Assembly: GCA_029782215.1 (NCBI GenBank)
Contig: JAKOVD010000022.1
Coordinates: forward strand, 5,165-69,164
Length of the DNA: 64,000 bases
Direction of reading: 5' to 3'
Source: Chloroflexota bacterium
Lineage (GTDB): Bacteria; Chloroflexota; Anaerolineae; J102
In this document: positions 32,508-46,232 of the stretch, one piece after another
Layout of the letters: each line of letters opens with the position of its first letter
How positions within the stretch are numbered: position 1 is the first letter of the stretch
Translations under genes and position numbers: made by a program
The notes under the pieces: model-generated
The model's database searches: none
What the model was told of the DNA's origin: nothing
The model's input: the letters and a program-made list of their open reading frames with translations, nothing else

Positions 32508-34079
32508 TCAATCAAGTGCGGGATAGGCCAGATAGGTCAGAAACTCAATGAAATGGTCGCTCAGGACCAACTCGTCTACGAGCGCCGCGGCGTCGCCGAG
32601 ACGGCCGGATAGCTCGCCGCCCAGCTTCGCCAACTCCTCATCCCGCAGCCGCTGGTAGAGGCTGGCATCCACCGGCCGGCCGTCGGCAAGGGCGGTGCCC
32701 GTGTGACGCCACTGCCAGATCTGCGACCGGGAAATCTCCGCCGTCGCCGTATCCTCCATCAGGTTGTAGATGGCGGCGGCGCCATTGCCCAGGAGCCAGG
32801 CATTCAAGTACTGCAAGGCGACGCTGATGTTGTTCCGCAAGCCGGCCTCGGTGATGGCGCCGCCCTCCACACGGAACTCCAGGAGCTGCGCTGCCGTGAC
32901 CTGCACATCTTCGCGCAGCCGCTCCTTCTGGTGGTCACGCTCGCCCAGGCGTCCCTCGAAGATCGCCCAGGCCGTGGGGACCAGATCAGGGTGCGCCACC
33001 CAGGTGCCGTCAAAGCCATCACCTGCCTCCCGTTCTTTGTCTGCCCGCACGGCCGCCAGCGCCCGTTCGTTGACCTCGGGGTCTCTACGGCTGGGAATGT
33101 AGGCCGCCATGCCGCCCACGGCATGGGCCCCACGACGATGGCAGGTCTTGACGAGAAGCTGGCAGTAGGCGCGCATGAAGGGCACCGACATGGTCACCTG
33201 CGCCCGATCGGGAAGGATGAAATCGGCCCGGGTGCGGAACTTCTTGATGCAGCTAAACATGTAATCCCAGCGGCCGGCATTCAGTCCCGAGGCATGGTCG
33301 CGCAGCTCGTAGAGGATTTCGTCCATCTCAAAGGCGGCCAGGATGGTTTCGATCAGGACGGTGGCGCGGATCGTGCCACGCGCCATGCCCAAGCCATCCT
33401 GCGCGGCGTTGAAGACGTCGTTCCACAGCCTGGCTTCGAGATGGCTTTCGAGCTTGGGCAAGTAGAAGTAGGGGCCAGAACCCCGCCGGAGCAGCTCGTG
33501 GCCGTTGTGGTACAAGTAGAGGCCGAAGTCGAACAAACTGGCCGAAATCGGCTCACCGTCCACCAGAACATGCCTCTCGGTCAGATGCCAGCCACGCGGG
33601 CGCACCAGCAGGACCGCAGGATGGTCGATCAGCCGGTAGACCCTGCCGTCCGGGTTGGTGAACTCGATGCGACGCCGCACGGCATCGCTGAGATTGGCCT
33701 GCCCCAGAACCACATTGTCCCACGTGGGCGAAAGGGCATCCTCAAAATCAGCCATGAACACACTGGCGCCTGAGTTGAGCGCGTTGATCATCATCTTGCG
33801 CTCGACCGGGCCGGTGATCTCCACCCACCGCTTTTGCAGGTCCGCGGGCGTCGCCGCCACCTGCCAGTCGCCGCTGCGCACGCCAACGGTATCAGAACGA
33901 AAATCGGGGAGCTCGCCGGCGTCAAAGGCAGCCTGGCGCCGTGCACGATCTTCCAGTAGAGACAGCCGCCGCTCATTGAACCGGCGGTGCAGACCGGCCA
34001 CAAACGCCAACGCTTCCGGGATGAGAACCTCTGCGTAGTCGGCCGGAACCGGACCGATCACTTGCACACCAGGGACCAT
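32508..34079 (-). CDS. aceB: Malate synthase A
   Basis: [52 protein letters not shown] and WVAHPDLV are malate synthase A motifs. GGAGGAG RBS before the ATG at 34079. Confidence 0.9.
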
Positions 34080-34173
34080 GCGTCTTGACTCCTCCGTCTG
34101 GGTGGGGTGGTTGATTGAGATGGTAATTGTGCGTTGGATGTGCGATGAAGACAAGCCGATGGGTGAGCTTCGT

Positions 34174-35433
34174 TCAACCGAACAGGCTGGGGAACCAGGA
34201 ACTCAGCACCAGGATGACCGTCAGGCCGATCAGCACCACGGTCACCACGGCCATCACCGCGTTGAAGATGCGGCCATTGGTGAACCGGCCCATCAGGCGC
34301 CGGTCATTGACCAAGCGCAGCATGACCAGGAGAATGACAGGCAGGAGGACACCGTTGAGGGTCTGGCTGGCCAGCATGGTCCGGATCAGGGATTCAATTG
34401 GCGCAAGGATGATGGCAGCGCCCACGACGATCAACGCGGTATAGATGCCGAAGAACACCGGCGCTTCGCGCATGCTGCGGCTCACGCCCATCTCCCAGCC
34501 GAACGCCTCGCAAACGACATAGGCCGTTGACAGCGGCAGGATGGCCGCCGAAAACACCGAAGCATTGAGCAGGCCGATGGCAAAGAGCACGTAGGCATAG
34601 CGTCCGGCCAGCGGCTCCAGGGCCATGGCGGCATCCTGCGCCGATTCGATCCGGATGCCGTGGGTGAAGAGCGTCGAAGCACAGGCGATCATGATGAAGC
34701 AGGCGACCACTACGGCGAAAAGGGAACCGATGATGACATCGATACGCTCATAGGCGATATCGACGATCTTGAGTCCCTTGTCCACGATCGAGGCCTGCTG
34801 GTAGAACTGCATCCAGGGGGCAATCGTGGTACCGATGATGGTGACCGCAAGCACCAGGTACTGCGTATTCCACTGGAAGGAAGGGCTAACGAAGGAATGG
34901 GCCACTTGCTGCCAATCGGGATGCGCCAGCACGCCGGAAACAATGTAGGTCAGGAAGATGGCGCTGGCGACCAGGAAGATGCGCTCTACGCGGGCGTAAC
35001 TTCCCTTGACCATGAGAAACCAGACAAGTACGGCGGCAACCGGCACCGAAAGGTATTTGCTGACGCCAAAGAGCTCCATGCTCGCCGCCACACCGGCAAA
35101 TTCACTCACGGTGTTGGCGAGGTTGGCGATGAGCATGATGCCGATGATCAGGGCCGTCCACCGCACGCCCAGGCTCTCACGGATGAGATCGGCAAGCCCT
35201 TTGCCTGTGACGATGCCCAAGCGGGCGCTCATCTCCTGCACAAGGATCAGAGCCAGCGCCACGAGCGGCATGATCCAGAGCATGCTGTAGCCGAAATGCG
35301 CTCCGGCCACCGAATAGGTGGTGATGCCGCCGGCATCATTGTCCACATTGGCGGTGATGATGCCTGGCCCCACAACGGCCAGGAGCAGGGCGATGCGTAG
35401 GCGCAGAGGCCTGGTGCGTTGTTGCAGTCTCAT
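34174..35433 (-). CDS. Nramp-related magnesium transporter (NRMT-type SLC11 family member)
   Basis: Nramp fold ([20 protein letters not shown] in TM1; [16 protein letters not shown] in TM6). The canonical DPGN is DAGG and the canonical A-x-x-M-P-H is T-T-I-A-P-W, i.e. the N-to-G, A-to-T and M-to-A changes described for Mg2+-transporting NRMTs. Confidence 0.75.
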
Positions 35434-35457
35434 AGGATGGGCAGGACTGAAGAAGGA

Positions 35458-36705
35458 TCAGTGATAGAGTCGCGGCAGCTTCTTCTTCCAGGCCGTGGGA
35501 ATGATCTTGTCCAGGGCGTCGTCAGCCGTGACAATGCCGTGGAGACGGCGCTCGTCATCGACAACCGGCACCGCCACCAGGTTGTACTTCGAGACCGCCT
35601 GCGCGGCATCGTCCTGGCTGTCCGTCAGACTGACGGTCACGATACGGCGGTGCATGAACTGGGTGACCAGCGTGTCCGGTTCGGCCAGCACCAACTCACG
35701 CAGGGAGAAGACCCCCAAGAGCTTGTCAGTCTCATCCGTGACATAGATGTAGTAGATGGTCTCTGCGTCACGGGCCGTCTGGCGCAGGAACTCGATCGCC
35801 TGCTCGGCGGTGGTATCGGGACCGACGGCGACGAACTCCGTGTTCATGATGCCGCCCGCGCTGTCCTCCGGGTAGGCCAGCAGCTTGCGCACGTCATCGG
35901 CCTCGTCCTTCTCCATCAGGTTGAGGATGTCGGCGCTGCGCTCTTCGGGCAGCTCGGCCAAAAGGTCGGCGGCAGCATCCGGTGACATGGCCTCCAAGAC
36001 GTCGGCGACGCGCTCGTCGGACATGCTTTCCACCAGGCTGGCCTGGAAGTCAGGCTCGACTTCCTCCAGGGTTTCCGCCACGGTCTCCACGTCCAGGGAC
36101 TCCAGGAACTTGCCGCCCTCAGCGCGGGTCAGGTCGCTGATGATCTCCGCCAGGTCCGCCGGGTGCAGCTCGTTGACGATGTTCCCCGGCACACGCAGCC
36201 GGATGGGCTGTTCACCGGGCAGAAGCTCGACCTCATGCCAGGAGATCGTTGCCGCGGGCGCCCGCCGGCCCACTTGCTTGGCCATACCGCGCAGGCCCAA
36301 GCGCCGCATCAGGCCCGCAGCACTGACATCCACATTGGCGACGTAGAAATGGCTGTTGACGCGCAGCAGCTCCAGGTCGTTGACGCGCACCACACGCACG
36401 CCGTTGGTATCGATGATCTGCTTGTCAAGCACATCGCGCACCAGGAACAGATCGCTGTCCGCAGCCTGGTAGGGCTCGATATCGGCCCACCGCTTTGTCA
36501 ACGGAACGGCAGGCGCCACCAGCACCGCCACATCTGGAAAGGGGACCAGAGTGACACCGCCGCGGGAACGCTTGACGGCGATGGCAACCAGCACGGGGTG
36601 CGGAAGCTCGACATGCATCGCAGCGACCAGGTCCTCTAAGCGACCGACGCGGTTGCCGTCCACATCGGCCACCGCCCTACCAAGCAACTCACTGACGTAA
36701 GCCAT
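35458..36705 (-). CDS. Soluble PRC-barrel + MgtE N-domain + CBS-pair protein (MgtE cytosolic sensor without the membrane pore)
   Basis: Two PRC-barrel-like segments (LLGRAVADVDGNRVGRLEDLV; VLDKQIIDTNGVRVVRVNDLEL). MgtE_N segment (LHPADLAEIISDL...VADVLEAMSPDAAADLLAELPEERSADILNLM). CBS pair (AGGIMNTEFVAV...; VAVPVVDDERRLHGIVTADDALD). The protein ends where the MgtE TM domain would begin. Confidence 0.8.
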   Translation of the reverse strand: MAYVSELLGRAVADVDGNRVGRLEDLVAAMHVELPHPVLVAIAVKRSRGGVTLVPFPDVAVLVAPAVPLTKRWADIEPYQAADSDLFLVRDVLDKQIIDTNGVRVVRVNDLELLRVNSHFYVANVDVSAAGLMRRLGLRGMAKQVGRRAPAATISWHEVELLPGEQPIRLRVPGNIVNELHPADLAEIISDLTRAEGGKFLESLDVETVAETLEEVEPDFQASLVESMSDERVADVLEAMSPDAAADLLAELPEERSADILNLMEKDEADDVRKLLAYPEDSAGGIMNTEFVAVGPDTTAEQAIEFLRQTARDAETIYYIYVTDETDKLLGVFSLRELVLAEPDTLVTQFMHRRIVTVSLTDSQDDAAQAVSKYNLVAVPVVDDERRLHGIVTADDALDKIIPTAWKKKLPRLYH

Positions 36706-36992: not shown

Positions 36993-37021
36993 TTGACCCG
37001 CATCGAAATTAGGAATAAGAT
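36993..37021 (+). promoter_or_regulatory. Candidate sigma70-type promoter for the sugar ABC operon
   Basis: TTGACC-17 nt-TAAGAT, about 140 nt upstream of the SBP ATG (37161). Confidence 0.4.
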
Positions 37022-37160
37022 TCGTGTTATGTGCGCGGTGAAAGCGCACCTTGGTCAATAGTCTGTGTCTGCACAAGGAGGCAAACCTATACTTTAGCCC
37101 CTACGTTCAGTAGCATCACGCTTGCTGTCCAACACTCAACTTCCCAGGAGAAGAAACACC

Positions 37161-38336
37161 ATGTCTCGCAAGTTGTCGTTTTCTCTGCTGTTCGTTTCGC
37201 TGATCGTCGTCGTGCTTGCCCTGGCGGCTTGCGGCGGCGCAGCGACGCCAGCAGCCCAGCAGCCGGCCGCCACCAAGGCGCCTGAAGCTGCTGCCACTAC
37301 TGCCCCCGCTGCCACCGGCGGCCCCCAGATCGGCATCGTGCTCCCGACCAAGGACGAGCCCCGCTGGATCCAGGACGAAGCCCGCTTCAAGGAACTGCTC
37401 GGCACCGCCGGCGTCCCCGTTGAGATTCTCTTCAGCCAGGGTTCCTCGGCCACTGAGAAGTCCAACGTCGAATCGCTGCTGACCAAGGGCGTCAAGGTCA
37501 TCATCCTCACGCCCCAGGACGGCGCTGCTGCTGCCGCCGCCGCCGAAGAGGCCCAGAAGGCCGGCGCCAAGGTCATTTCCTACGACCGCCTGATCCTCAA
37601 CACGCCCGCCGTCGACTACTACGTCACCTTCGACAGCAACGCCGTGGGCCGGGCCCAGGGCCAGTACCTGATCGACAAGGCCCAGGGCACAGGCAACCCC
37701 CTGTACCTCTACGCCGGCGCCGCCTCTGACAACAACGCCTTCCTCTTCTTCGAAGGCGCCTGGGACGTGCTCCAGCCCAAGATCGCCGATGGCACCTTCG
37801 TCATCAAGAACTCCGCCGAAGCCACTGCCCTCAAGGACAAGCCCAAGCTGACCCGTGACGAAATGGCCAAGATCATCGGCCAGGTCACCACGAACTGGGA
37901 CTTCAACACCGCCAAGAACCTTGCCGAGGCCAACCTGACCGTCGCCAAGCCCGAGGATAAGGGCAATGTCTTCATCCTCGCCCCCAACGACGGCACCGCC
38001 CGTGCCATCGCCGATGCCTTCGCCGCCGACAAGGACGTGAAGAGCTACGTCGTCACCGGCCAGGACGCCGAAAAGGCCTCCGTCCAGTACATCATCGACG
38101 GCAAGCAGTCGATGACCGTCCTCAAGGACACCCGCACCCTGTCCAAGGACGCCATCGCCGCCGCCCTGGCGTTCCTCAAGGGCCAGACCCCTGAGAAGAC
38201 CACCACCTACAACAACCAGAAGATCGACGTGCCGGCCAAGCCGTCCGAGGTCATCACGGTTGACAAGGCCAACGTCAAGCAGGCGATCGTCGACTCCGGT
38301 TACTGGCCTGCCGATGCCTTCACCGGCCTGCAGTAA
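37161..38336 (+). CDS. Sugar ABC transporter substrate-binding lipoprotein (ChvE/multiple-monosaccharide type, class I PBP fold)
   Basis: Lipoprotein signal MSRKLSFSLLFVSLIVVVLALAACGG, an Ala/Pro/Thr tether, then IGIVLPTKDEPRWIQD...VISYDRLI...YYVTFDS...TGQDAEKASVQYI. AGGAGAAG RBS. Confidence 0.9.
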   Translation: MSRKLSFSLLFVSLIVVVLALAACGGAATPAAQQPAATKAPEAAATTAPAATGGPQIGIVLPTKDEPRWIQDEARFKELLGTAGVPVEILFSQGSSATEKSNVESLLTKGVKVIILTPQDGAAAAAAAEEAQKAGAKVISYDRLILNTPAVDYYVTFDSNAVGRAQGQYLIDKAQGTGNPLYLYAGAASDNNAFLFFEGAWDVLQPKIADGTFVIKNSAEATALKDKPKLTRDEMAKIIGQVTTNWDFNTAKNLAEANLTVAKPEDKGNVFILAPNDGTARAIADAFAADKDVKSYVVTGQDAEKASVQYIIDGKQSMTVLKDTRTLSKDAIAAALAFLKGQTPEKTTTYNNQKIDVPAKPSEVITVDKANVKQAIVDSGYWPADAFTGLQ

Positions 38337-38357: not shown

Positions 38358-38393
38358 AGGAAAGGCGACGACCCGGGGGCCGTCGCCTTTCCT
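38358..38393 (+). promoter_or_regulatory. Intercistronic stem-loop between the SBP and ATPase genes
   Basis: aggaaaggcgacg-acccgggggc-cgtcgcctttcct: perfect 13-bp stem with no U-run. Hairpins at this position in ABC operons typically stabilise or partially terminate the SBP message. Confidence 0.5.
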
Positions 38394-38429
38394 CTACTCC
38401 CCGGATAATCTTGGCTCGCAGGAGGTGTA

Positions 38430-40982
38430 ATGGCTACTCCCATCCTGGAAATGAGGAACATCACCAAGACGTTCCCTGGGGTCAAGGCGCTGGACAACGT
38501 GACCTTCAGCGTTGCCCAAGGTGAGATCCACTGCCTGGTCGGTGAGAATGGGGCGGGGAAGTCCACCCTGATGAAGGTGTTGAGCGGGGTGTGGCCTTAT
38601 GGAAGTTACACAGGGGATATCCTGTTTAGCGGCGAGGTCCAGAAGTTCAACGGCATTGCCGACAGTGAGAGAGTCGGCATCGCCATTATCTACCAGGAGC
38701 TAGCGCTTTTTCCTGAACTCAGCGTTTACGAGAACATCTTCCTCGGACACGAGGTCAGAAAGGGCGCTTTGGTCGACTGGAATGAGACGATCAAGCAAGC
38801 AGGCGTGATGCTGAAAAAGGTCAGGCTCGACGTCAATCCGGCGGCGAAGATCAAGGATCTGGGCGTTGGCAAGCAGCAGTTGGTGGAGATCGCCAAGGCC
38901 TTGAGCAAAGACGTCAAGCTCCTGATCCTGGACGAGCCGACAGCGGCCTTGAACGAGAATGACAGCGAGAACCTGCTGAATCTTCTGCGCGAGCTGAAGG
39001 AACACGGCGTGACCTGCATCATGATCTCGCACAAGCTAAGAGAGGTCATCTCCATCGCCGACACGGTCACCGTCCTGCGCGATGGGCAGACGGTCATCAC
39101 CCTGGATGCGCACAAGGGCGAAGTGTCCGAACAGGTCTTGATCAAGCACATGGTTGGTCGCGAGATCAACAACATCTATCCGTCCCGGCAGCGCAACCCG
39201 TTCAGGACTGCGGCTGCCGCCGTGGAAGCCGCCAAGGCGGCGGGCGTCAAGGTCATCTCTTACGACCGGATGATCACCGACACCAAGGCGATCGACTACT
39301 ATGTGACCTTCGACAGCCTCGCCGTCGGCGCGCAGCAGGCGCAGTACCTGGTAGACCATGCTACGGGCAAGGGCAACCCTCTCTATCTGTATGCCGGCGC
39401 CCCGACCGACAACAACGCCTTCTTCTTCTTCCAGGGCGCCTGGGGGGTCTTGCAGCCCAAGATCGCCGATGGCACTTTTGTGATCAAGAATTCAAGCCAG
39501 GCCGTCGGCCTCCAGGCGAACGCTACCCTGACGCGCGACCAGATCAGCGCGATCTTCGGCCAGATCGCCACCAACTGGGATCGCAACACCGCCAGGAACC
39601 TGGCACAGTTCAACGTGACCTCCGCCACCGCGGCCGACAAGGGCAATGTCTTCGTTCTCGCGCCCAACGACAACACCGCACGTGCCATTGGCGATGTCTT
39701 CGCTGCCGACAAGGACGTCAAGAGCTTCCTGATCACCGGCCAGGACGCCGAGGAAGCGTCCGTCCAGTACATCCTGGACGGCAAGCAGTCCATGACTGTC
39801 TTCAAGGACGTGCGCGTCCTGGTGCAGGCCGCAACAGATGCCGCGGTCACCCTGCTGAAGGGGCAGGCTCCTGCCACCAACGGGAGCTACGACAACGGTG
39901 CGGTAGCTGTCCCCGCGCTCCAGGCCCCGGTCGTGTCAGTGGACAAGGCAAATGTTCGGGCCCTTCTGGTGGACTCAGGCTATCACAAGGCCAGCGACGG
40001 CGCTGGTGCGAGCACGCCGGCATCCTCAGGCCATCCGGCCGTCGGGATCGTGCTTCCGACCACAGAGGAGCCGCGCTGGATTCAGGATCAGGCTCGCTTC
40101 CAGAAGGCGTTCAAGGCCGCCGGCTACGACGCCGAGATCCTCTTCAGCCAGGGCGATGCCGCCAGGGAGAAAGCGAACGTCGAAGCGCTGGTTGCCAAGG
40201 GTGTCAAGGTCCTGCTCATCTGCCCGCAGGGTGGTGGAGAAGTCGTCCTTGAAGTCAAAAACTGGAGCGCCTACAACCCCGCCCTGGGCAGGCAAATCCT
40301 CCAGGACGTGAATATTAACGTCAAGAAGGGTGAGATCGTGGGCTTTGCGGGTCTGATGGGGTCGGGGAGGACGGAGCTCGCTCTCAGCTTATTCGGCAAT
40401 CCCACCAGCTTCCATGTCAAGGGTGATCTTTTCATCAACGGCAAGAAGCACACCTTCAAGAAGCCCGAAGATGCCATCGACGCCGGTCTGGCCTATGTCA
40501 CCGAGGACAGGAAGGCCAAGGGGCTGATTCTGATCCAGGATGTCAAGCGGAACATCACCCTGGCCAACCTCTACGAGATCGCCAGCCGCGGTGTGGTGGA
40601 CAACAACGCCGAGGTCAGGGTCGCCACTGAGTATCGCAGCAGTCTCAACATCAAGACTCCCAGCGTCGAGCAAAAGGTCGGGAATCTGAGCGGCGGCAAC
40701 CAGCAGAAGGTTTCGTTGGGCAAGTGGTTGTTCGTCAAGCCCAACGTGCTCATCCTGGATGAACCGACGCGCGGAATCGATGTCGGGGCGAAGTATGAGA
40801 TCTACACGCTCATGAACCGGTTGGTGGAGCAGGGCATGAGCATCATCATGATCTCGTCCGAATTGCCCGAAGTCCTTGGGATGAGCGATCGAGTCTACGT
40901 TGTTGCTTCCGGCAGGATCACCGGCGAGCTGCCGATCGAGGAAGCAACCCAAGAGAAGATCATGCAGCTGGCAACCAGCTAA
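38430..40982 (+). CDS. Sugar ABC transporter ATP-binding protein (tandem NBD, GguA/XylG/MglA type) with a ~344-aa circularly permuted SBP-fold domain inserted between NBD1 and NBD2
   Basis: Uninterrupted 850-aa ORF. NBD1 (aa 1-258): GENGAGKST, LLILDEPTAAL. NBD2 (aa ~603-850): GLMGSGRTE, LSGGNQQK, LILDEPTRGIDV. Residues 259-602 are not ATPase-like and are paralogous to the upstream SBP. Confidence 0.85.
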   Translation: MATPILEMRNITKTFPGVKALDNVTFSVAQGEIHCLVGENGAGKSTLMKVLSGVWPYGSYTGDILFSGEVQKFNGIADSERVGIAIIYQELALFPELSVYENIFLGHEVRKGALVDWNETIKQAGVMLKKVRLDVNPAAKIKDLGVGKQQLVEIAKALSKDVKLLILDEPTAALNENDSENLLNLLRELKEHGVTCIMISHKLREVISIADTVTVLRDGQTVITLDAHKGEVSEQVLIKHMVGREINNIYPSRQRNPFRTAAAAVEAAKAAGVKVISYDRMITDTKAIDYYVTFDSLAVGAQQAQYLVDHATGKGNPLYLYAGAPTDNNAFFFFQGAWGVLQPKIADGTFVIKNSSQAVGLQANATLTRDQISAIFGQIATNWDRNTARNLAQFNVTSATAADKGNVFVLAPNDNTARAIGDVFAADKDVKSFLITGQDAEEASVQYILDGKQSMTVFKDVRVLVQAATDAAVTLLKGQAPATNGSYDNGAVAVPALQAPVVSVDKANVRALLVDSGYHKASDGAGASTPASSGHPAVGIVLPTTEEPRWIQDQARFQKAFKAAGYDAEILFSQGDAAREKANVEALVAKGVKVLLICPQGGGEVVLEVKNWSAYNPALGRQILQDVNINVKKGEIVGFAGLMGSGRTELALSLFGNPTSFHVKGDLFINGKKHTFKKPEDAIDAGLAYVTEDRKAKGLILIQDVKRNITLANLYEIASRGVVDNNAEVRVATEYRSSLNIKTPSVEQKVGNLSGGNQQKVSLGKWLFVKPNVLILDEPTRGIDVGAKYEIYTLMNRLVEQGMSIIMISSELPEVLGMSDRVYVVASGRITGELPIEEATQEKIMQLATS
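39204..40235 (+). other. Embedded circularly permuted periplasmic-binding-protein (SBP) domain inside the ABC ATPase ORF
   Basis: aa 259-519 (nt 39204-39986) align with the SBP from AAAAAEEAQKAGAKVISYDR to its C-terminal VDSGYW. aa 520-537 form a Ser/Gly/Ala/Pro linker. aa 538-602 (nt 40041-40235) align with the mature SBP N-terminus IGIVLPTKDEPRW...KGVKVIILTPQDG. No signal peptide, no internal stop, in frame at both junctions. Confidence 0.8.
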
Positions 40983-40993
40983 GGAGACGCACC

Positions 40994-42205
40994 ATGTCAG
41001 CCGTCCAAGAGAGTATACCTACCAAGTCTTTTGTCCAGGACCTGAGCACAGTCCTCCGTAAGAACGTCCGCGAATACGGCATGTATATCGCCCTGTTTGT
41101 GATCATGGCGATATTCGCCGTCCTGACGAAGGGCCTGTTCCTGTCGCCGCGCAACATCAGCAACCTGATCAACCAGACGGGCTACATTGCAATCCTGGCC
41201 GTCGGTATGACGCTGGTCATCGTTATTCGCCACATCGACCTGTCGGTGGGCTTCCTGGCAGGCTTCCTCGGCGCGATTGCGGCCATTCTCATGGTGCAGT
41301 ACTTGCTGCCGGTCATTGCCGTCCTGCCGATCGTCTTGGCGCTCGGCATCGGAGCAGGACTGATCACGGCTTTTCTGATCGCCTACTTCGGCATCCCGGC
41401 CTTTGTGGCCACCCTCGCCGGGTGGCTGATCTATCATGGCCTGTTGCTGCAGGCCACCATGAGCACGGGCACGATCATCATTCCCAACAAGACTTTCAAC
41501 GCCATCGGCAACGGCTTCATCCCCGACATCCCCGGCTTTGGGTTTGTCCCCGGTCACGCCCTGACACTACTGCTCGGGATCATCGCCATCGTCCTGTTCG
41601 TGATCAGCCAGATCAACGACCGCAGGAAGAAAATGAGTTATGGCTTTGAGGTGCTTCCGAACGAGATCTTCGTTCTCAAGCTGGTCTTCATCTCGGCCAT
41701 CGTCGGCTTGGTCTGCTGGGTGCTGGCGGCGTACAACGGCATCTCGTGGACCGCCGCCATCGTCTTGCTGGTGGTCGGCGTCTACCACTTCATCACGACA
41801 CGAACCGTCCTTGGCCGGCACATTTACGCCGTCGGTGGCAATCCTGAAGCCGCCGAACTCAGCGGCATCAGCGTGAAAAGGATCACCTATGTCGTGTTTG
41901 GCTCCATGGGCTTCCTTGCCGCTCTATCCGGTATCCTGTTCGCCTCACGCCTGCAGTCTGCCACGACGACGGCCGGGAATCTGTTCGAATTGGATGCCAT
42001 CGCCGCGGCCTACGTCGGCGGTGTGTCGGCGGCCGGCGGCGTCGGCACCATCATCGGGTCGCTGATCGGCGCCCTGGTGATGGGCTCCCTGGTAAGCGGC
42101 ATGAACTTGATGGGCGTCGATATTTCGGTCCAGTACATCGCCCGAGGTCTGGTGCTGGTGATTGCCGTCATCTTCGATGCCGCCACCCGGCGCCGGGGTG
42201 GATGA
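40994..42205 (+). CDS. Sugar ABC transporter permease (GguB/XylH-type, ~10 TM)
   Basis: 403 aa. ...GLFLSPRNISNLINQTGYIAILAVGMTLVIVIRHIDLSVG... and ...GRHIYAVGGNPEAAELSGI... are typical of monosaccharide (CUT2) permeases. Confidence 0.9.
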   Translation: MSAVQESIPTKSFVQDLSTVLRKNVREYGMYIALFVIMAIFAVLTKGLFLSPRNISNLINQTGYIAILAVGMTLVIVIRHIDLSVGFLAGFLGAIAAILMVQYLLPVIAVLPIVLALGIGAGLITAFLIAYFGIPAFVATLAGWLIYHGLLLQATMSTGTIIIPNKTFNAIGNGFIPDIPGFGFVPGHALTLLLGIIAIVLFVISQINDRRKKMSYGFEVLPNEIFVLKLVFISAIVGLVCWVLAAYNGISWTAAIVLLVVGVYHFITTRTVLGRHIYAVGGNPEAAELSGISVKRITYVVFGSMGFLAALSGILFASRLQSATTTAGNLFELDAIAAAYVGGVSAAGGVGTIIGSLIGALVMGSLVSGMNLMGVDISVQYIARGLVLVIAVIFDAATRRRGG

Positions 42206-42241
42206 GACACCGACTCACTAGTCATCCCCTTCCCATGCTCG

Positions 42242-42281
42242 GAGCCGGTCTGCGAACCTCGCAGGCCGGCTCTGTTTTTTT
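42242..42281 (+). terminator. Rho-independent terminator of the sugar ABC operon
   Basis: gagccggtctgcga-acc-tcgcaggccggctc (14-bp stem with one G-U pair) followed by tgttttttt. Confidence 0.8.
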
Positions 42282-42342
42282 CACAGGCCTGCGAGGTTGC
42301 CGGCGCTGTGGTCGAGCCTCAGGTGCGAACGATGCCGGCGTT

Positions 42343-43401
42343 CTAGCCTGGAACGCCGCAGTAGGTCCGCAGTTGGGCCACTTGCTCGGGACTGCCGATC
42401 ACGACAATGGCGGTCTGCGCCGTCAAAAGCTCATCCGGTCCTGGATTGAATACGACAGTGCCATCCGGTTTCTCCAGGGCAATGGGAACCATGCCCGTCT
42501 GCTCAAAGACGGCGGCTTCGCCCAGGGTCTTGCCGGCGATGGAGCAGAAGCTGCCGACAGTCACCTGTTCCACCCGGGTGGAGGTCTGCTGCCGCAGCAT
42601 CCTATCCAGGAATGTCACCACCTGGGGCCTGATCATCTCACTGGCCATGCGCATGGCGCCGATAAACATCGGGTTCACTACATAGTCGGCGCCCGCACGT
42701 TGGAACTTCGACACGAGACTGTTGTCACGGCACTCGGCCACGATCTTGATCTCAGGGTTGTCATAGCGCGCCAACACGGTGATGAGCATGTTCTTGCCAT
42801 CGTCGCCCATGGCCGCGAAGACGCCCTGGGCGCGCTGAAGTCCCGCCCGCTGCAGCACCCCTTCATCGGTAGGATCGCCGCGCAACACCGACACGGTACT
42901 GAGATGTTCAGTTACTTCTTGAACAGCTTCAGGATCGGTGGTCACCAGCACGGAAGGACGCTCGGTGGTGTGCAGCTCACGCAGAATGTGAATGCTGCTC
43001 TCACTAGAGCCGCACACGATGTAGTGATGTTGGAGTTCGTCGATGCGTTGTTCCATCAGGCGCTCCCGAATGAGACGAGCCGGGTTTCGTTCCACGAAAT
43101 AGGCCGTCACGGTGGCGGTAGCATAGAGCATCACACCGTAGCCAGCCCACATCAGAACCAGCGTGTAGGCGCGGCCGGCGCGATCCAGATCCAGGATCTC
43201 ACCGTAGCCGATCGTGGTCAGAGTGATGCTGGTCATGTAGAAGGCGTTGATCCAGGACCACGCCCCACGTCCAAGGACGTAGTACCCCACCGTACCCGCC
43301 AGCAAGACAACCAGAACCGCCAACGCCGGGTACTTTAGGCGGCGGATCAACTCGCCGCCAAATTCAATGACCAGCGACTTGCGCGGAGAGAGAGGTCCCA
43401 T
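42343..43401 (-). CDS. Potassium channel with RCK/TrkA-N and TrkA-C domains (MthK-like)
   Basis: 2-TM pore with canonical filter TLTTIGYGE, followed by a Rossmann-type RCK domain (HHYIVCGSSESS...) and a TrkA_C-like end. Confidence 0.85.
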   Translation of the reverse strand: MGPLSPRKSLVIEFGGELIRRLKYPALAVLVVLLAGTVGYYVLGRGAWSWINAFYMTSITLTTIGYGEILDLDRAGRAYTLVLMWAGYGVMLYATATVTAYFVERNPARLIRERLMEQRIDELQHHYIVCGSSESSIHILRELHTTERPSVLVTTDPEAVQEVTEHLSTVSVLRGDPTDEGVLQRAGLQRAQGVFAAMGDDGKNMLITVLARYDNPEIKIVAECRDNSLVSKFQRAGADYVVNPMFIGAMRMASEMIRPQVVTFLDRMLRQQTSTRVEQVTVGSFCSIAGKTLGEAAVFEQTGMVPIALEKPDGTVVFNPGPDELLTAQTAIVVIGSPEQVAQLRTYCGVPG

Positions 43402-43454
43402 GGAGCGTGATGGGGAAAGCGGTGAACGAATCGTCTTCCATCGTGGAAGACGAT

Positions 43455-44303
43455 CTACAGATGGAGGGTCAGTCCCTCAAAGGCGGCGGTGCAGCGAATG
43501 GACGATCCTTGCTGCCGCAGCCAGGAACGAGCCTCGGTCTGGATCGCATCCAGCTCATCGTCACTGCGATCGGGGTCGTGGTGGAACAAGACCAAATGCT
43601 TGACGTCCGCCGCCACGGCCAACTGCAGGGCCTGGTAGAGGACGCTGTGTCCCCAGCCATGCTTGGCCGGCATGTCGGGCGGCAAGTACTGGGCATCGTG
43701 GATGAGCACGTCGGCGCCCCGGCAAAACTCCAGGTAGGCCTCAAACGGTGTCACCAGCGCATCTGCGGGCGGCACAAGCTCGTTATCGGTCAGATAGACA
43801 ATGGTCCGTCCTTCATTGCACACGCGATAGCCAAAGCCGCCGCCGGGATGATTCAGAGGGATGAGGTCGGTATGCAAGCCGATGGCGGTGAGCACCGGCC
43901 GCGGATCATCAAAGATCACCTGGCGATCGGACAACAACGTGTCGAATTCAACGGGGAACCGCGTGCCGTCCATCTGCTCGATCAGGGCGCGCGTGATGGT
44001 CTCACCCAGGGTGGGCAAAAGACAATGGACACGCCGGCGCTGATACAGTGGCTGGAAAGCGGGAAATCCCTGGATATGGTCCCAATGATTGTGCGTGACC
44101 ACCACGTAGATCTCACTCGGAGTCGCCGCCAGCGTCTTGCCGAGATTGCGAATCCCTGTGCCCGCATCCATGACCAACGTGATGTCACTGCCAAGGTGAA
44201 CACTGACGCAGGCGGTGTTGCCGCCATAGCGAAGGGTTGTAGAGCCAGGGGTGGGAAATGTGCCGCGCACACCCCAGAACCGGACGGTCAAAGGTCGGTG
44301 CAT
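43455..44303 (-). CDS. MBL-fold metallo-hydrolase
   Basis: RFWGVRGTFPTPG...YGGNTACV..., HxHxDH variant THNHWDHIQG, and later HD/H motifs. Start at MHRPL with GGAAGG upstream. Confidence 0.75.
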   Translation of the reverse strand: MHRPLTVRFWGVRGTFPTPGSTTLRYGGNTACVSVHLGSDITLVMDAGTGIRNLGKTLAATPSEIYVVVTHNHWDHIQGFPAFQPLYQRRRVHCLLPTLGETITRALIEQMDGTRFPVEFDTLLSDRQVIFDDPRPVLTAIGLHTDLIPLNHPGGGFGYRVCNEGRTIVYLTDNELVPPADALVTPFEAYLEFCRGADVLIHDAQYLPPDMPAKHGWGHSVLYQALQLAVAADVKHLVLFHHDPDRSDDELDAIQTEARSWLRQQGSSIRCTAAFEGLTLHL

Positions 44304-44561
44304 CGTTTGCCTTCCAGGAAAAGGACGTTCAGCAGACAATCTGGGCCAGTTACACGTTAACCTGGGCTGAATAATACCGATAAACGGACTATTCGCAAAA
44401 GGCGTTCGCGCTGGCAGGGTTGGGAGCGACTGGTGAGCCATACTCCGGTAAGCCAGCGCCGATTTGCCGAAGGCATCCGTCCTGGCAGGGTTAGGACCGG
44501 GACACGCTCCATGCTAGACTGCCTTTGACCGTCAAAACGCATCATGTCTCGGAGGGATGTC

Positions 44562-45554
44562 ATGAACACCGTGCGCTGGGGGTTGCTTTCGACCGCCAAT
44601 ATCAACCGCAGGGTCATTCCTGCCATCCGCAGCTCGGAACGCGGGCGGCTGGTGGCGGTGGCCAGCCGCAGCCAGGAGGCCGCCGCTACCTATGCGGCAA
44701 GGTGGGAAATCCCCCTGGCCTTCGGGAGCTACGAAGCATTATTGGCCTCCGATGCCGTCGACGCAATCTACATCAGCGTTCCCAATCACCTGCATGCAGC
44801 CTGGACGGTGGCGGCGCTGGAACAAGGGAAGCACGTTCTCTGCGAGAAGCCCTTCGCGCTCACCCTGGCCGACGTGGATGTGATGACCGCTGCTGCGGCC
44901 AGGACCGGGCGCGTGCTGGCAGAGGCGTTCATGTACCGTCACCATCCCCAGATGAAGCTCGCCGGCGACTGGGTGCGGTCGGGCAGGCTCGGCCAGATCA
45001 CGTTGGTGCGGGCGATCTTCAATTTCAATCTGACCAACCGTCCCAACATCCGGCTCGATCCCGCGACCGGCGGGGGAAGTCTGTGGGACGTGGGGGTTTA
45101 CCCTGTGAGCTTCGCCCAGGCGATAGTGGGTGAACCGCCGCAGCACGTTGACGGCATCCAAAGGCTGGGGCCCACGGGCGTCGACGAAGACTTTGCCGGC
45201 CAGCTTGCCTATGCGGGCGGGGCTATCGCCCAGGTCGCCTGCTCGTTCCGCACACCCTTCTATACGTTCGCCGAGATCATCGGCAGCGAAGGCCGCCTGA
45301 CCTTCAACCGGCCCTTTGTCGCCGGCCGAGACGGCGCTGCACGCGAGATGGTCTTTCATCCCGACGAAGGCGCGCCGCAGCCCATCGCCTTTCCGGACAC
45401 CGACCCCTACCTGGGCGAGATCGAAGACATGCACGACGCCATCCTGGAGGGCCGCCCCACCTTCATTCGCCTTGCGGAAACCCGCAATCATGTGGCCACC
45501 GTCCTGGCGCTGTATCGTTCGGCGCTGGCGCCTGCGAACGGTCCCGTGTTCTAG
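44562..45554 (+). CDS. Gfo/Idh/MocA family oxidoreductase
   Basis: VRWGLLSTANINRRVIPAI...AIYISVPNHLHAAWTVAALEQGKHVLCEKP (Rossmann fold plus the EKP motif). GGAGGG lies 5 nt before the ATG at 44562. Confidence 0.85.
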   Translation: MNTVRWGLLSTANINRRVIPAIRSSERGRLVAVASRSQEAAATYAARWEIPLAFGSYEALLASDAVDAIYISVPNHLHAAWTVAALEQGKHVLCEKPFALTLADVDVMTAAAARTGRVLAEAFMYRHHPQMKLAGDWVRSGRLGQITLVRAIFNFNLTNRPNIRLDPATGGGSLWDVGVYPVSFAQAIVGEPPQHVDGIQRLGPTGVDEDFAGQLAYAGGAIAQVACSFRTPFYTFAEIIGSEGRLTFNRPFVAGRDGAAREMVFHPDEGAPQPIAFPDTDPYLGEIEDMHDAILEGRPTFIRLAETRNHVATVLALYRSALAPANGPVF

Positions 45555-45569
45555 CGCCTGGTCACCCCA

Positions 45570-46232
45570 ATGTCCGTCAAAGACAACGCAACGCCCATGG
45601 AAAAACGTATGATCGATATCAGCCGCACGCTCGCGCCGGGCATGGCCGTCTGGCCGGGAGACAGCCCCTTCGGGATTGAAACCATCGTGGCCATCAGGGA
45701 TGGCGCCTCGGTCAACCTGACCACCCTGACCCTGAGCGCGCATACCGGCACCCACGTCGACGCGCCCTATCACTTTGACGACCGTGGCCGCACCCTGGAC
45801 GTCGTCGACCTGGCGCCCTTCTGGGGACCGGCGCAGGTGGTCACGGTAACCAAAGAGAGCGGCCCCCTGGAACCCGGAGATTTCGCCCACATCGATCTCC
45901 GGCAAGCGCCTCGGCTCCTGGTGCGTTCTCGGGCCAGCACGCAAGACCCGACCCGCTTCCCTGAGGAATTCGTGTATCCCAGCCCCGAACTTGCGAACTT
46001 TTTGGGCGCGCAAGGCGTCCTATTGTACGGCGCCGATGCTCCTTCGATGGACCATGCCAGCAGCGCCACTCTGCCCGGACACCACGCCCTGCTGGCCGCA
46101 GGCATCGCCATCCTTGAAGGTCTCGATCTGACCCAGGCGCCTGACGGGATCTACGAGCTGGCAGCCCTGCCGCTCAAGATCGCTGGCGGCGATGGCAGCC
46201 CTGTACGGGCTGTCCTCCGCCCCTGGCCTTGA
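45570..46232 (+). CDS. Cyclase-family protein / arylformamidase (kynurenine formamidase-like)
   Basis: HTGTHVDAPYHF motif (HxGTHxDxPxH) and DLTQAPDGIYELAALPLKI. The true start may be an internal Met (MEKRMIDIS, 45597 or 45609). Confidence 0.75.
   Translation: MSVKDNATPMEKRMIDISRTLAPGMAVWPGDSPFGIETIVAIRDGASVNLTTLTLSAHTGTHVDAPYHFDDRGRTLDVVDLAPFWGPAQVVTVTKESGPLEPGDFAHIDLRQAPRLLVRSRASTQDPTRFPEEFVYPSPELANFLGAQGVLLYGADAPSMDHASSATLPGHHALLAAGIAILEGLDLTQAPDGIYELAALPLKIAGGDGSPVRAVLRPWP

Follow-up and report, generated by a model that had tools for sequence, protein, structure and literature searches.

Within a 64,000-nucleotide stretch of the genome of a Chloroflexota bacterium (assembly GCA_029782215.1, contig JAKOVD010000022.1; hereafter the window, to which coordinates refer unless another locus is named), we focused on an ATP-binding cassette (ABC) importer operon whose ATPase contains, in the connector between its two nucleotide-binding domains (NBDs), a sequence homologous to periplasmic binding proteins (PBPs) but in circularly permuted order. 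The operon appears to encode a ChvE/GguAB-like monosaccharide importer, the ATPase of which would have gained a whole type-I PBP in its NBD1–NBD2 connector. Our analysis of this sequence and of its predicted structure makes it moderately probable that the insert, plugged into the NBD connector, serves in the cytoplasm as a sugar sensor that gates the ATPase, and suggests how such a domain may have arisen from the extracellular substrate-binding proteins (SBPs) of the same family of importers.

Architecture and occurrence of the fused ATPase

The open reading frame (ORF) at 38430..40982 on the forward strand is a single unbroken frame of 850 amino acids, and the order NBD1, insert, NBD2 that an initial annotation had read in it is confirmed by the ORF and by Pfam, in which ABC_tran is matched twice (E 3e-48). 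By its sequence, this protein is a tandem-NBD monosaccharide ABC ATPase of the GguA/XylG/RbsA type (CUT2). GguA is the best NCBIfam family (753.9 bits, under the equivalog cut-off of 810), with the match split in two stretches and NBD1 covering model positions 1–252. NBD1 (residues 1–258; 38430..39203, +) carries the Walker A motif GENGAGKST, the signature-like motif LGVGKQQ, the Walker B motif LLILDEPT and H201, and ends in a flexible tail of 17 residues (...MVGREINNIYPSRQRNPF, residues 242–258), in which the predicted local distance difference test (pLDDT) score of the AlphaFold2 (AF2) model is below 50 at 243–248. NBD2 (residues 603–850 and the stop; 40236..40982, +) has a degenerate Walker A motif (GLMGSGRTE), the signature LSGGNQQK and the Walker B motif LILDEPTRG. 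The catalytic motifs are invariant among 52 fused homologues. Canonical CUT2 ATPases have about 500 residues and pass from NBD1 to NBD2 directly, through a connector of 5–7 residues, whereas here the 850-residue chain has no such direct join and its connector holds a 344-residue PBP.

The insert is homologous to the ChvE/XylF-like extracellular lipoprotein SBP, with one PBP unit, that is encoded upstream (37161..38336, +; Peripla_BP_4, 160 bits), but the two parts of the sequence have changed places. The first part (residues 259–526; 39204..40007, +) corresponds to the SBP from helix alpha3 to the C terminus (SBP ~134–402) and comprises the entire C-lobe and the hinge of the PBP. It is followed by a Gly/Ala/Ser/Pro linker (...GASTPASSGHPA, residues 527–537; 40008..40040, +; pLDDT below 50 at 523–533) and then by the second part (residues 538–602; 40041..40235, +), equivalent to beta1-alpha1-beta2-alpha2-beta3 of the SBP (SBP 70–133), whose terminus ...KVLLICPQGG is joined directly to NBD2. 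In BLASTP, ATPase residues 274–526 align without gaps with SBP 150–402 (64% identity, E 3e-102) and residues 538–600 with SBP 70–132 (62% identity, E 2e-23), the corresponding nucleotide identities being 77% and 74%; these values agree with the 60–65% and roughly 75% that had been estimated by eye. In Pfam, residues 261–479 match profile positions 69–257 of Peripla_BP_4 (133.4 bits, cut-off 35.1), and residues 536–601 weakly match positions 2–67 of Peripla_BP_1. With positions 69–257 ahead of 2–67, the order of the PBP profile is reversed in the insert. The permutation comparison, run with low-complexity masking off, recovers SBP core residues 68/69–334 and then 2–66, each once and none duplicated. 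The native N-to-C order of secondary structure elements is absent, the cut lies in the beta3/alpha3 loop, and the sequence of the insert contains no signal peptide, hydrophobic leader or lipobox cysteine. The excised insert is matched by the NCBIfam ChvE model with E 3e-69. Profile searches, BLASTP and the unmasked alignment therefore bear out what had been proposed from the letters alone: PBP homology in residues 259–602, with every segment of the fold present once in permuted order and the signal peptide and lipobox missing. The SBP gene (37100–38300) and the insert (39050–40250) also share a G+C content of 0.61–0.68 and a negative GC skew, with lower G+C (0.54–0.58) in the NBD-coding flanks (38450–39050 and 40250–41150); the Ala/Pro/Gly-rich compositional signature of the SBP gene is thus retained by the insert within the ATPase gene.

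This architecture is recurrent. Among 5.8 billion protein clusters searched (counted at 90% identity; sources NCBI, JGI, ENA and Logan), at least 120 have the same Pfam set, with 75–100% identity and lengths of 844–870 residues, and some of the carrier contigs are 0.4–2.5 Mb long. In GTDB contigs, with one genome per species, the fused gene is found at 15 loci, and the carriers belong to Anaerolineales, Anaerolineaceae, Caldilineaceae, Ca. Amarolinea aalborgensis and 'Chloroflexi RBG_16_57_11'. The cut point is identical to that in the window at 14 of the 15 loci, so that the same insertion is shared by orthologues in 14 further species-level genomes of Anaerolineae/Caldilineae, and the view that the gene is neither an assembly chimera nor a collapsed repeat is upheld by these shared junctions and by the clusters. 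The order SBP–ATPase–permease is seen in the window and at 12 of the 15 fused loci; at L007, L009 and L011 the contig does not reach as far as the upstream gene, and L044 (discussed below) is without an adjacent SBP gene. At 50% clustering, the architecture is a single representative among 1.84 billion proteins, and no other protein with a PBP between NBDs is present among the best 150 matches to the 50% representatives, which together point to a single, fairly young family confined to Chloroflexota. Other odd CUT2 ATPases are seen in the representative library, in the form of a triple-NBD protein and a permease–ATPase fusion (P0131, 752 residues, and P0145, 859 residues).

The insertion site can be defined exactly by comparison with unfused ATPases from other Chloroflexota and from some Firmicutes, whose genes adjoin those of related SBPs. 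Their NBDs are 74–82% identical to those of the window protein, which is the same similarity as among the fused proteins themselves, and the two NBD alignments are just 5–7 residues apart, the connector at the insertion site having 5–6 residues. These orthologues read ...HMVGREIxNIYPxRxxxxx/GEVVLEVKxW... (the slash marking the insertion site), and the window protein reads ...HMVGREINNIYPSRQRNPF, then 344 residues, then GEVVLEVKNW...; this match at the junctions indicates that no residue of the ATPase was lost. The extra residues thus sit precisely where the initial annotation had placed them, in the NBD linker, and its boundaries (39204–40235, residues 259–602) are exact. In a neighbor-joining (NJ) tree of the NBDs, the fused ATPases do not separate as a clade: 16 unfused ATPases fall among them, and the stem is ~0.001.

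Origin of the permuted insert

Genes resembling the expected precursor of the permutation still exist. Two complete PBP units are encoded in one lipoprotein by 37 of the 75 SBP ORFs from 80 related loci (for example L001:854-3193, L003:749-3109, L005:918-3164, L013:766-2970 and L017:2119-4284, with 32 other loci likewise), separated by Ala/Pro/Gly linkers of 10–25 residues. The units within a tandem gene are 84–100% identical at the nucleotide level, which suggests that they evolve in concert or were duplicated recently; identities of 100% may also be due to the assembler. The insert is collinear with these tandem SBPs over 333–342 residues across the repeat boundary (residues 133–465 of the L013 ORF, for example, correspond to insert residues 14–344 with 65% identity), and its linker aligns with the tandem junctions of L017, L061, L001 and L013, a tandem junction reading ...SGYYQASDFTGL-GGGAAPAGKL-AVGIVLPT... 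where the window reads ...SGYHKASD-GAGASTPASSGHP-AVGIVLPT.... Collinearity across the repeat boundary together with the match of the linkers argues that the insert is a one-unit stretch from a tandem gene. Cut from the middle of such an SBP–SBP gene, this stretch would consist of the C-terminal part of unit 1, the inter-unit linker and the N-terminal part of unit 2, and it would be circularly permuted because of where it was cut. From these sequences, the tandem gene would be the duplication intermediate postulated for circular permutation, extant in genomes. The initial annotation had seen in the linker a C terminus fused to a post-lipobox tether, as expected from duplication and fusion: the tandem genes, which adjoin the ATPase gene in many relatives, and the collinear alignment speak for the duplication–fusion route, but the direct tether has to be abandoned, as the linker is equivalent to the tandem inter-unit linker.

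An NJ tree built from SBP units and de-permuted inserts recovers the 63 window-type inserts as a monophyletic group. Their identity to the SBP encoded beside them is 62–70%, compared with 70–84% for the tandem SBPs at L017 and L061, which points to a single old event and later divergence, with no ongoing conversion from the neighboring gene. Contrary to what had been supposed, the insert is therefore not a copy of the present upstream SBP: it belongs to a clade of its own, nearer to tandem SBPs of other Anaerolineae. Further extracellular multi-PBP proteins are also encountered (L046:46-1197, L012:897-3204, P0163, P0121, P0271-P0274 and L061:202-3765). Some of these are heterologous, a ChvE-like unit being combined with another PBP that, judged by its sequence, resembles RbsB in L046 and Bmp in L012 (the ORF of which includes a run of N) and P0163. 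Others, 1000–1190 residues long, contain two or three units and extra C-terminal domains.

A second permutation variant is represented by L044:3302-5902, which encodes protein P0270 (HMD89570.1) from an Anaerolineaceae metagenome-assembled genome (MAG). A PBP occupies the same site in the ATPase, but it is cut after beta1, the layout being ...IYPDRKHARY/EPRWMQD ... SGYYQASQFTGF-25-residue linker-AVGIVLPMAM/EEVILEVKNW. This insert clusters with SBPs in the NJ tree, apart from the other inserts, and an SBP fragment with which it shares 96% identity terminates contig L046 of the same MAG; upstream of the gene are BipA and an M1 peptidase. In the AF2 model of P0270, computed from an alignment that is partly mis-registered (mean pLDDT 70.9), the PBP core scores 84–97 and the relocated beta1 strand ~44–61. 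No further protein of this type was found in the protein databases searched, in which P0270 is a singleton, and a degenerate junction-specific DNA scan of the metagenome collection gave 0 matches. Two in-frame junctions without shared k-mers are unlikely to come from De Bruijn assembly, which makes the variant probably real, and we regard it as probably an independent and recent event.

Fold, pocket and possible role of the insert

The insert has been maintained by selection, as the initial annotation had surmised in calling it an old paralogue. In pairs with unsaturated synonymous divergence (dS 0.26–0.67), the ratio of nonsynonymous to synonymous substitution rates (dN/dS) is 0.11–0.16 for the insert (~0.13), 0.03–0.06 for NBD1 and 0.07–0.12 for NBD2, and in the full set of 91 pairs the respective medians are 0.148, 0.069 and 0.089. 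The AF2 model of the fused ATPase, computed from an alignment of 52 sequences, has a mean pLDDT of 80.5, and the insert scores ~85–98 across residues 259–602, with the linker (523–533) as its sole disordered part. Helix alpha3 starts at 259, strands beta1, beta2 and beta3 span 538–542, 568–572 and 594–597, and the CPQGG loop after beta3 passes straight to the first strand of NBD2, NBD1 being attached by its flexible tail. The top Foldseek match in the PDB is a sugar SBP from Chloroflexus aurantiacus (4RXU; E 4.5e-35, 53% identity), with a target-normalized TM-score of 0.74 that is reached despite the permutation. The two-lobe domain expected from the letters is thus recovered by structure prediction, and the insert is predicted to adopt the two-lobe alpha/beta type-I PBP fold.

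The putative sugar-binding pocket is conserved. Ten residues that we take to be the xylose contacts of E. coli XylF (3M9W, which is among the listed homologues) agree with the XylF sequence in residue type at 10 of 10 positions, and by pairwise alignment they correspond to P548, R549, W550, D279, R280, D327, N329, N413, D439 and K459 of the ATPase. Conservation at each of these positions is 100% across 63 inserts and reaches at least 95% across 114 SBP units. More broadly, inserts and SBPs have the same residue, invariant to at least 95%, in 98 columns, and in just two columns the groups are fixed for different residues: G601, at the cut site, stands in place of SBP D133, and Q371 in place of E247. 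Constraint has been relaxed in the inserts at eight SBP-invariant positions, among them N204 beside the pocket and F400 in the C-terminal tail, and gained at three (L475, K477 and Q558).

How might such a domain act? Lying between two cytoplasmic NBDs and having no transmembrane segment, the insert must be cytoplasmic. Its two chain ends lie next to each other in the beta3/alpha3 loop, and it is rigidly continuous with NBD2. In PBPs of this kind the beta3/alpha3 loop would be on the cleft side of the N-lobe, which would bring the chain ends near the ligand site. Permutation sets these ends side by side, so that the domain fits the connector with the spacing of the NBDs unchanged; it may thus be viewed as a geometric solution by which a PBP, with native termini far apart, could be made to fit a 5-residue connector. 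The imported monosaccharide would be bound in the cytoplasm by the retained pocket, Venus-flytrap closure would sterically alter the closure of NBD1 and NBD2 on ATP, and uptake would be tuned to the intracellular level of free sugar by feedback control. A precedent for the principle, the only one known, exists in the cyanobacterial nitrate and bicarbonate importers, in which the C-terminal regulatory domains (CRDs) of NrtC and CmpC are SBP paralogues on a cytoplasmic ABC ATPase that serve as ligand-sensing regulatory domains (PMC10945777, PMC13287603). These CRDs regulate transport, as a platform for PII in NRT and by an auto-inhibition that nitrate relieves in CmpABCD (PMC10945777, PMC13287603). 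Trans-inhibition, as the initial annotation had proposed, would be the most likely sign of the regulation in our importer, ligand activation as in CmpC, of the opposite sign, being the alternative. We propose, tentatively and at a lower level of confidence than the sensor itself, that the insert is a self-contained feedback device made from a permuted version of the transporter's own receptor and that such devices evolved maybe at least twice, with the cut after beta3 in one case and after beta1 in the other (L044/P0270).

Several observations weigh against a sensor that gates the ATPase. The predicted TM-score (pTM) of the model is only 0.63, and any placement of the PBP against the NBD dimer is tentative. 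With both chain ends in the N-lobe, hinge closure would exert no direct pull on the connector, and any coupling would necessarily be steric. The pocket is mapped by sequence alignment from presumed XylF contacts. In 95% of the inserts, Gly takes the place of D133 (G601, codon 40230-40232), which in SBPs belongs to the 'PQDG' loop that follows beta3, and N204, the pocket-proximal middle residue of 'DNN', is only 49% conserved in them (ATPase residue 328, 39411-39413); these changes may have altered affinity or specificity and, speculatively, could have lowered affinity into a range useful inside the cell. Finally, the CRD of NRT is mainly a docking platform for PII and CmpABCD is activated by ligand, so the analogy sets neither the role of the insert nor the sign of its effect.

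It is therefore worth considering what else the insert could be. Like the CRD of NrtC with PII, it could be a docking platform for a cytoplasmic signaling or catabolic protein that controls the transporter, with the pocket secondary at most. A shift of function is indicated by the distinct stem of the insert clade and by the greater divergence of the inserts (66–69% identity to SBPs, compared with 74–80% among SBPs). The NRT CRD can bind nitrate, yet works mainly as a PII hub, and the insert has a few specifically conserved positions of its own, L475, K477 and Q558. However, a new protein interface should involve more than three positions with gained constraint, neither the window nor any of 14 loci has a candidate partner gene linked to the operon, and the complete invariance of ten putative sugar contacts is hard to explain without ligand binding; we consider docking unlikely. 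That same invariance bears on a ligand-independent spacer or strut stabilizing or orienting the NBD pair or the complex, whose pocket would be kept for the stability of the fold. Adjacent domain ends and a beta3 that runs straight into NBD2 do make the insert a compact plug-in, and purifying selection by itself is no proof of ligand binding, but the most conserved positions are polar cleft residues (R, W, D, R, D, N, N, D, K), typical of ligand contacts and not of a core, and unfused orthologues with equally similar NBDs manage without the module. A strut is thus distinctly improbable.

An intact pocket would also suit a cytoplasmic acceptor or buffer that blocks back-leak or passes the sugar to a kinase with no regulation of the ATPase, all the more as there would be one copy per transporter, directly under the permease. 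A stoichiometric binder is nevertheless unable to buffer flux, no kinase or catabolic gene is linked, and no precedent was found in the literature searched, which leaves this role very improbable. The chance that the gene is an artefact or dead—a chimeric assembly, a collapsed repeat or a recent insertion inactivating the ATPase—is close to nil. An SBP gene with 74–77% nucleotide identity to the insert does lie directly upstream, and the window protein is a singleton cluster, but the same junctions recur in 14 further genomes and in at least 120 clusters that come from four independent data sources, some of them on contigs of 0.4–2.5 Mb, and monophyletic inserts merely 62–70% identical to the neighboring SBP are not what an assembly error would leave. 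We reject artefact and pseudogene alike on the grounds of recurrent architecture, purifying selection (dN/dS ~0.13) and invariant ATPase motifs. A cytoplasmic sugar sensor in the NBD connector remains the reading that we prefer.

Operon context and relation to known systems

The operon consists of the genes for a cluster-B SBP, the ATPase and the permease. The SBP gene was delimited mechanically as an ORF from a TTG at 37122, but the likely start is the ATG at 37161, which begins a lipoprotein sequence (MSRKLSF...LAAC lipobox); its product scores 255 bits against NCBIfam ChvE, below the cut-off of 460, and its nearest solved relative is 4RXU (E 2e-159), with ChvE itself (3URM) at E 2e-47. The third gene (40994..42205, +) encodes a GguB-like permease of 403 residues with a BPD_transp_2 domain (GguB, 407 bits, below the cut-off of 450). 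A promoter-like sequence (TTGACC-17-TAAGAT; 36993..37021, +) upstream of the SBP gene matches the consensus at 9 of 12 positions, and with 2 such sites found where 1.1 are expected, a consensus match alone is weak evidence. The spacer between the SBP and ATPase genes contains an intercistronic stem-loop with a 13-bp G+C-rich stem (38358..38393, +), present as a hairpin in the minimum free energy structure, the z-score of the whole spacer being only -1.5, followed 3' by the strong Shine–Dalgarno (SD) sequence AGGAGGTG of the ATPase gene (~38419-38426, +). Located between the SBP stop and this SD, the hairpin is typical of elements that raise SBP mRNA over that of downstream genes, and it may have this function. 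An intrinsic-terminator-like hairpin with a 16-bp stem followed by T7 (42240..42284, +) marks the end of the operon. Within the 64-kb window, the operon has neither a regulator nor a catabolic gene linked to it, and no LacI, ROK or GntR regulator adjoins it. The neighbors at 32508-36705 and 42343-46232 are unrelated to sugar: a malate synthase, an Nramp transporter, an MgtE_N+CBS protein, a TrkA-gated K+ channel, an MBL-fold hydrolase, a Gfo/Idh/MocA oxidoreductase and a cyclase-family protein.

In its gene order, in the usual asymmetric NBD motifs and in the best NCBIfam models for all three genes, the importer resembles the CUT2 systems ChvE-GguA-GguB and XylFGH, but unlike in ChvE-GguA-GguB all three scores (754, 255 and 407 bits) are below the equivalog cut-offs. 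The closest parallel to the insert is the CRD of NrtC/CmpC, with which it shares a paralogue of the own SBP fused to a cytoplasmic NBD, a two-lobe cleft, a conserved pocket and an asymmetric NBD pair. There are also clear differences. The CRD is C-terminal on one of two separate NBD subunits, to which it is joined by a hinge helix, whereas the insert is internal in a single chain; the CRD has been described without permutation and is ~30% identical to the anion-binding NrtA, whereas the insert is permuted and 62–84% identical to SBPs; and the latter, unlike NrtC/CmpC, involves a ChvE/XylF-type sugar PBP (Peripla_BP_4), a CUT2-type importer and Chloroflexota. The PBP matches of the insert are limited to Peripla_BP_4 and Peripla_BP_1, with ChvE/XylF as the best NCBIfam models and no homology to NrtA/CmpA in these searches, which argues for an origin independent of the NrtC/CmpC CRD. 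The claim that no such ABC ATPase had been described therefore stands in part: the principle was known from NrtC/CmpC, while the internal site, the permutation, the PBP class and the sugar system are without precedent. We found no description of this architecture in the literature searched, the coverage of which is incomplete; within it, the internal location between tandem NBDs, the natural permutation, the type-I sugar PBP, the CUT2 system, the independent origin and the visible precursors are all new relative to the precedent.

Other transporters offer more distant parallels. MetNI (with its C2 domain), ModBC and MalK/EIIAGlc also have an extra cytoplasmic domain on the NBD, which senses a substrate or signal and holds the NBDs apart. 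Those domains are C-terminal, symmetric (one per NBD, via dimerization) and not PBPs, whereas here there is a single internal PBP with a putative regulatory role; and ModBC and MetNI are inhibited by substrate, whereas CmpABCD is activated by ligand on an SBP-like CRD. In GlnPQ-type importers, tandem substrate-binding domains (SBD–SBD) fused to the permease are extracellular and feed the transporter. Related loci of our family similarly encode two SBP units in one extracellular lipoprotein, but, unlike in the GlnPQ type, a unit-length stretch across the repeat boundary was moved into the cytoplasmic ATPase. LacI/GalR repressors use a type-I PBP fold as a cytoplasmic sugar sensor, unpermuted and with a DNA-binding domain in place of an ATPase; the insert is like them in having this fold in the cytoplasm, and its weak Peripla_BP_1 match lies at 536–601.

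What does this mean for the biology of these importers? ABC importers are effectively irreversible and spend ATP on each substrate, and they need to stop when the substrate accumulates. Known controls are the C-terminal regulatory domains of MetN, ModC, MalK with EIIAGlc, OpuA and PotA, but we know of no allosteric substrate sensor described for CUT2 monosaccharide importers. The insert is a candidate for such a sensor, and among its carriers are filamentous bacteria that are abundant in wastewater, such as Ca. Amarolinea. The family is also a rare case in nature in which permutation by duplication, together with the insertion of a domain, has left all its stages extant—the single SBP, the tandem SBP–SBP and the permuted unit-length stretch inside another protein—and it indicates cut points at which PBPs tolerate new termini, the beta3/alpha3 loop and possibly the beta1/alpha1 loop. 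It is the converse of biosensor design, where circularly permuted green fluorescent protein is placed into PBPs. If our interpretation is true, the insert would be the first natural circularly permuted PBP to serve as a domain inserted into another protein and, for CUT2 sugar importers, the first regulatory domain that senses the substrate.

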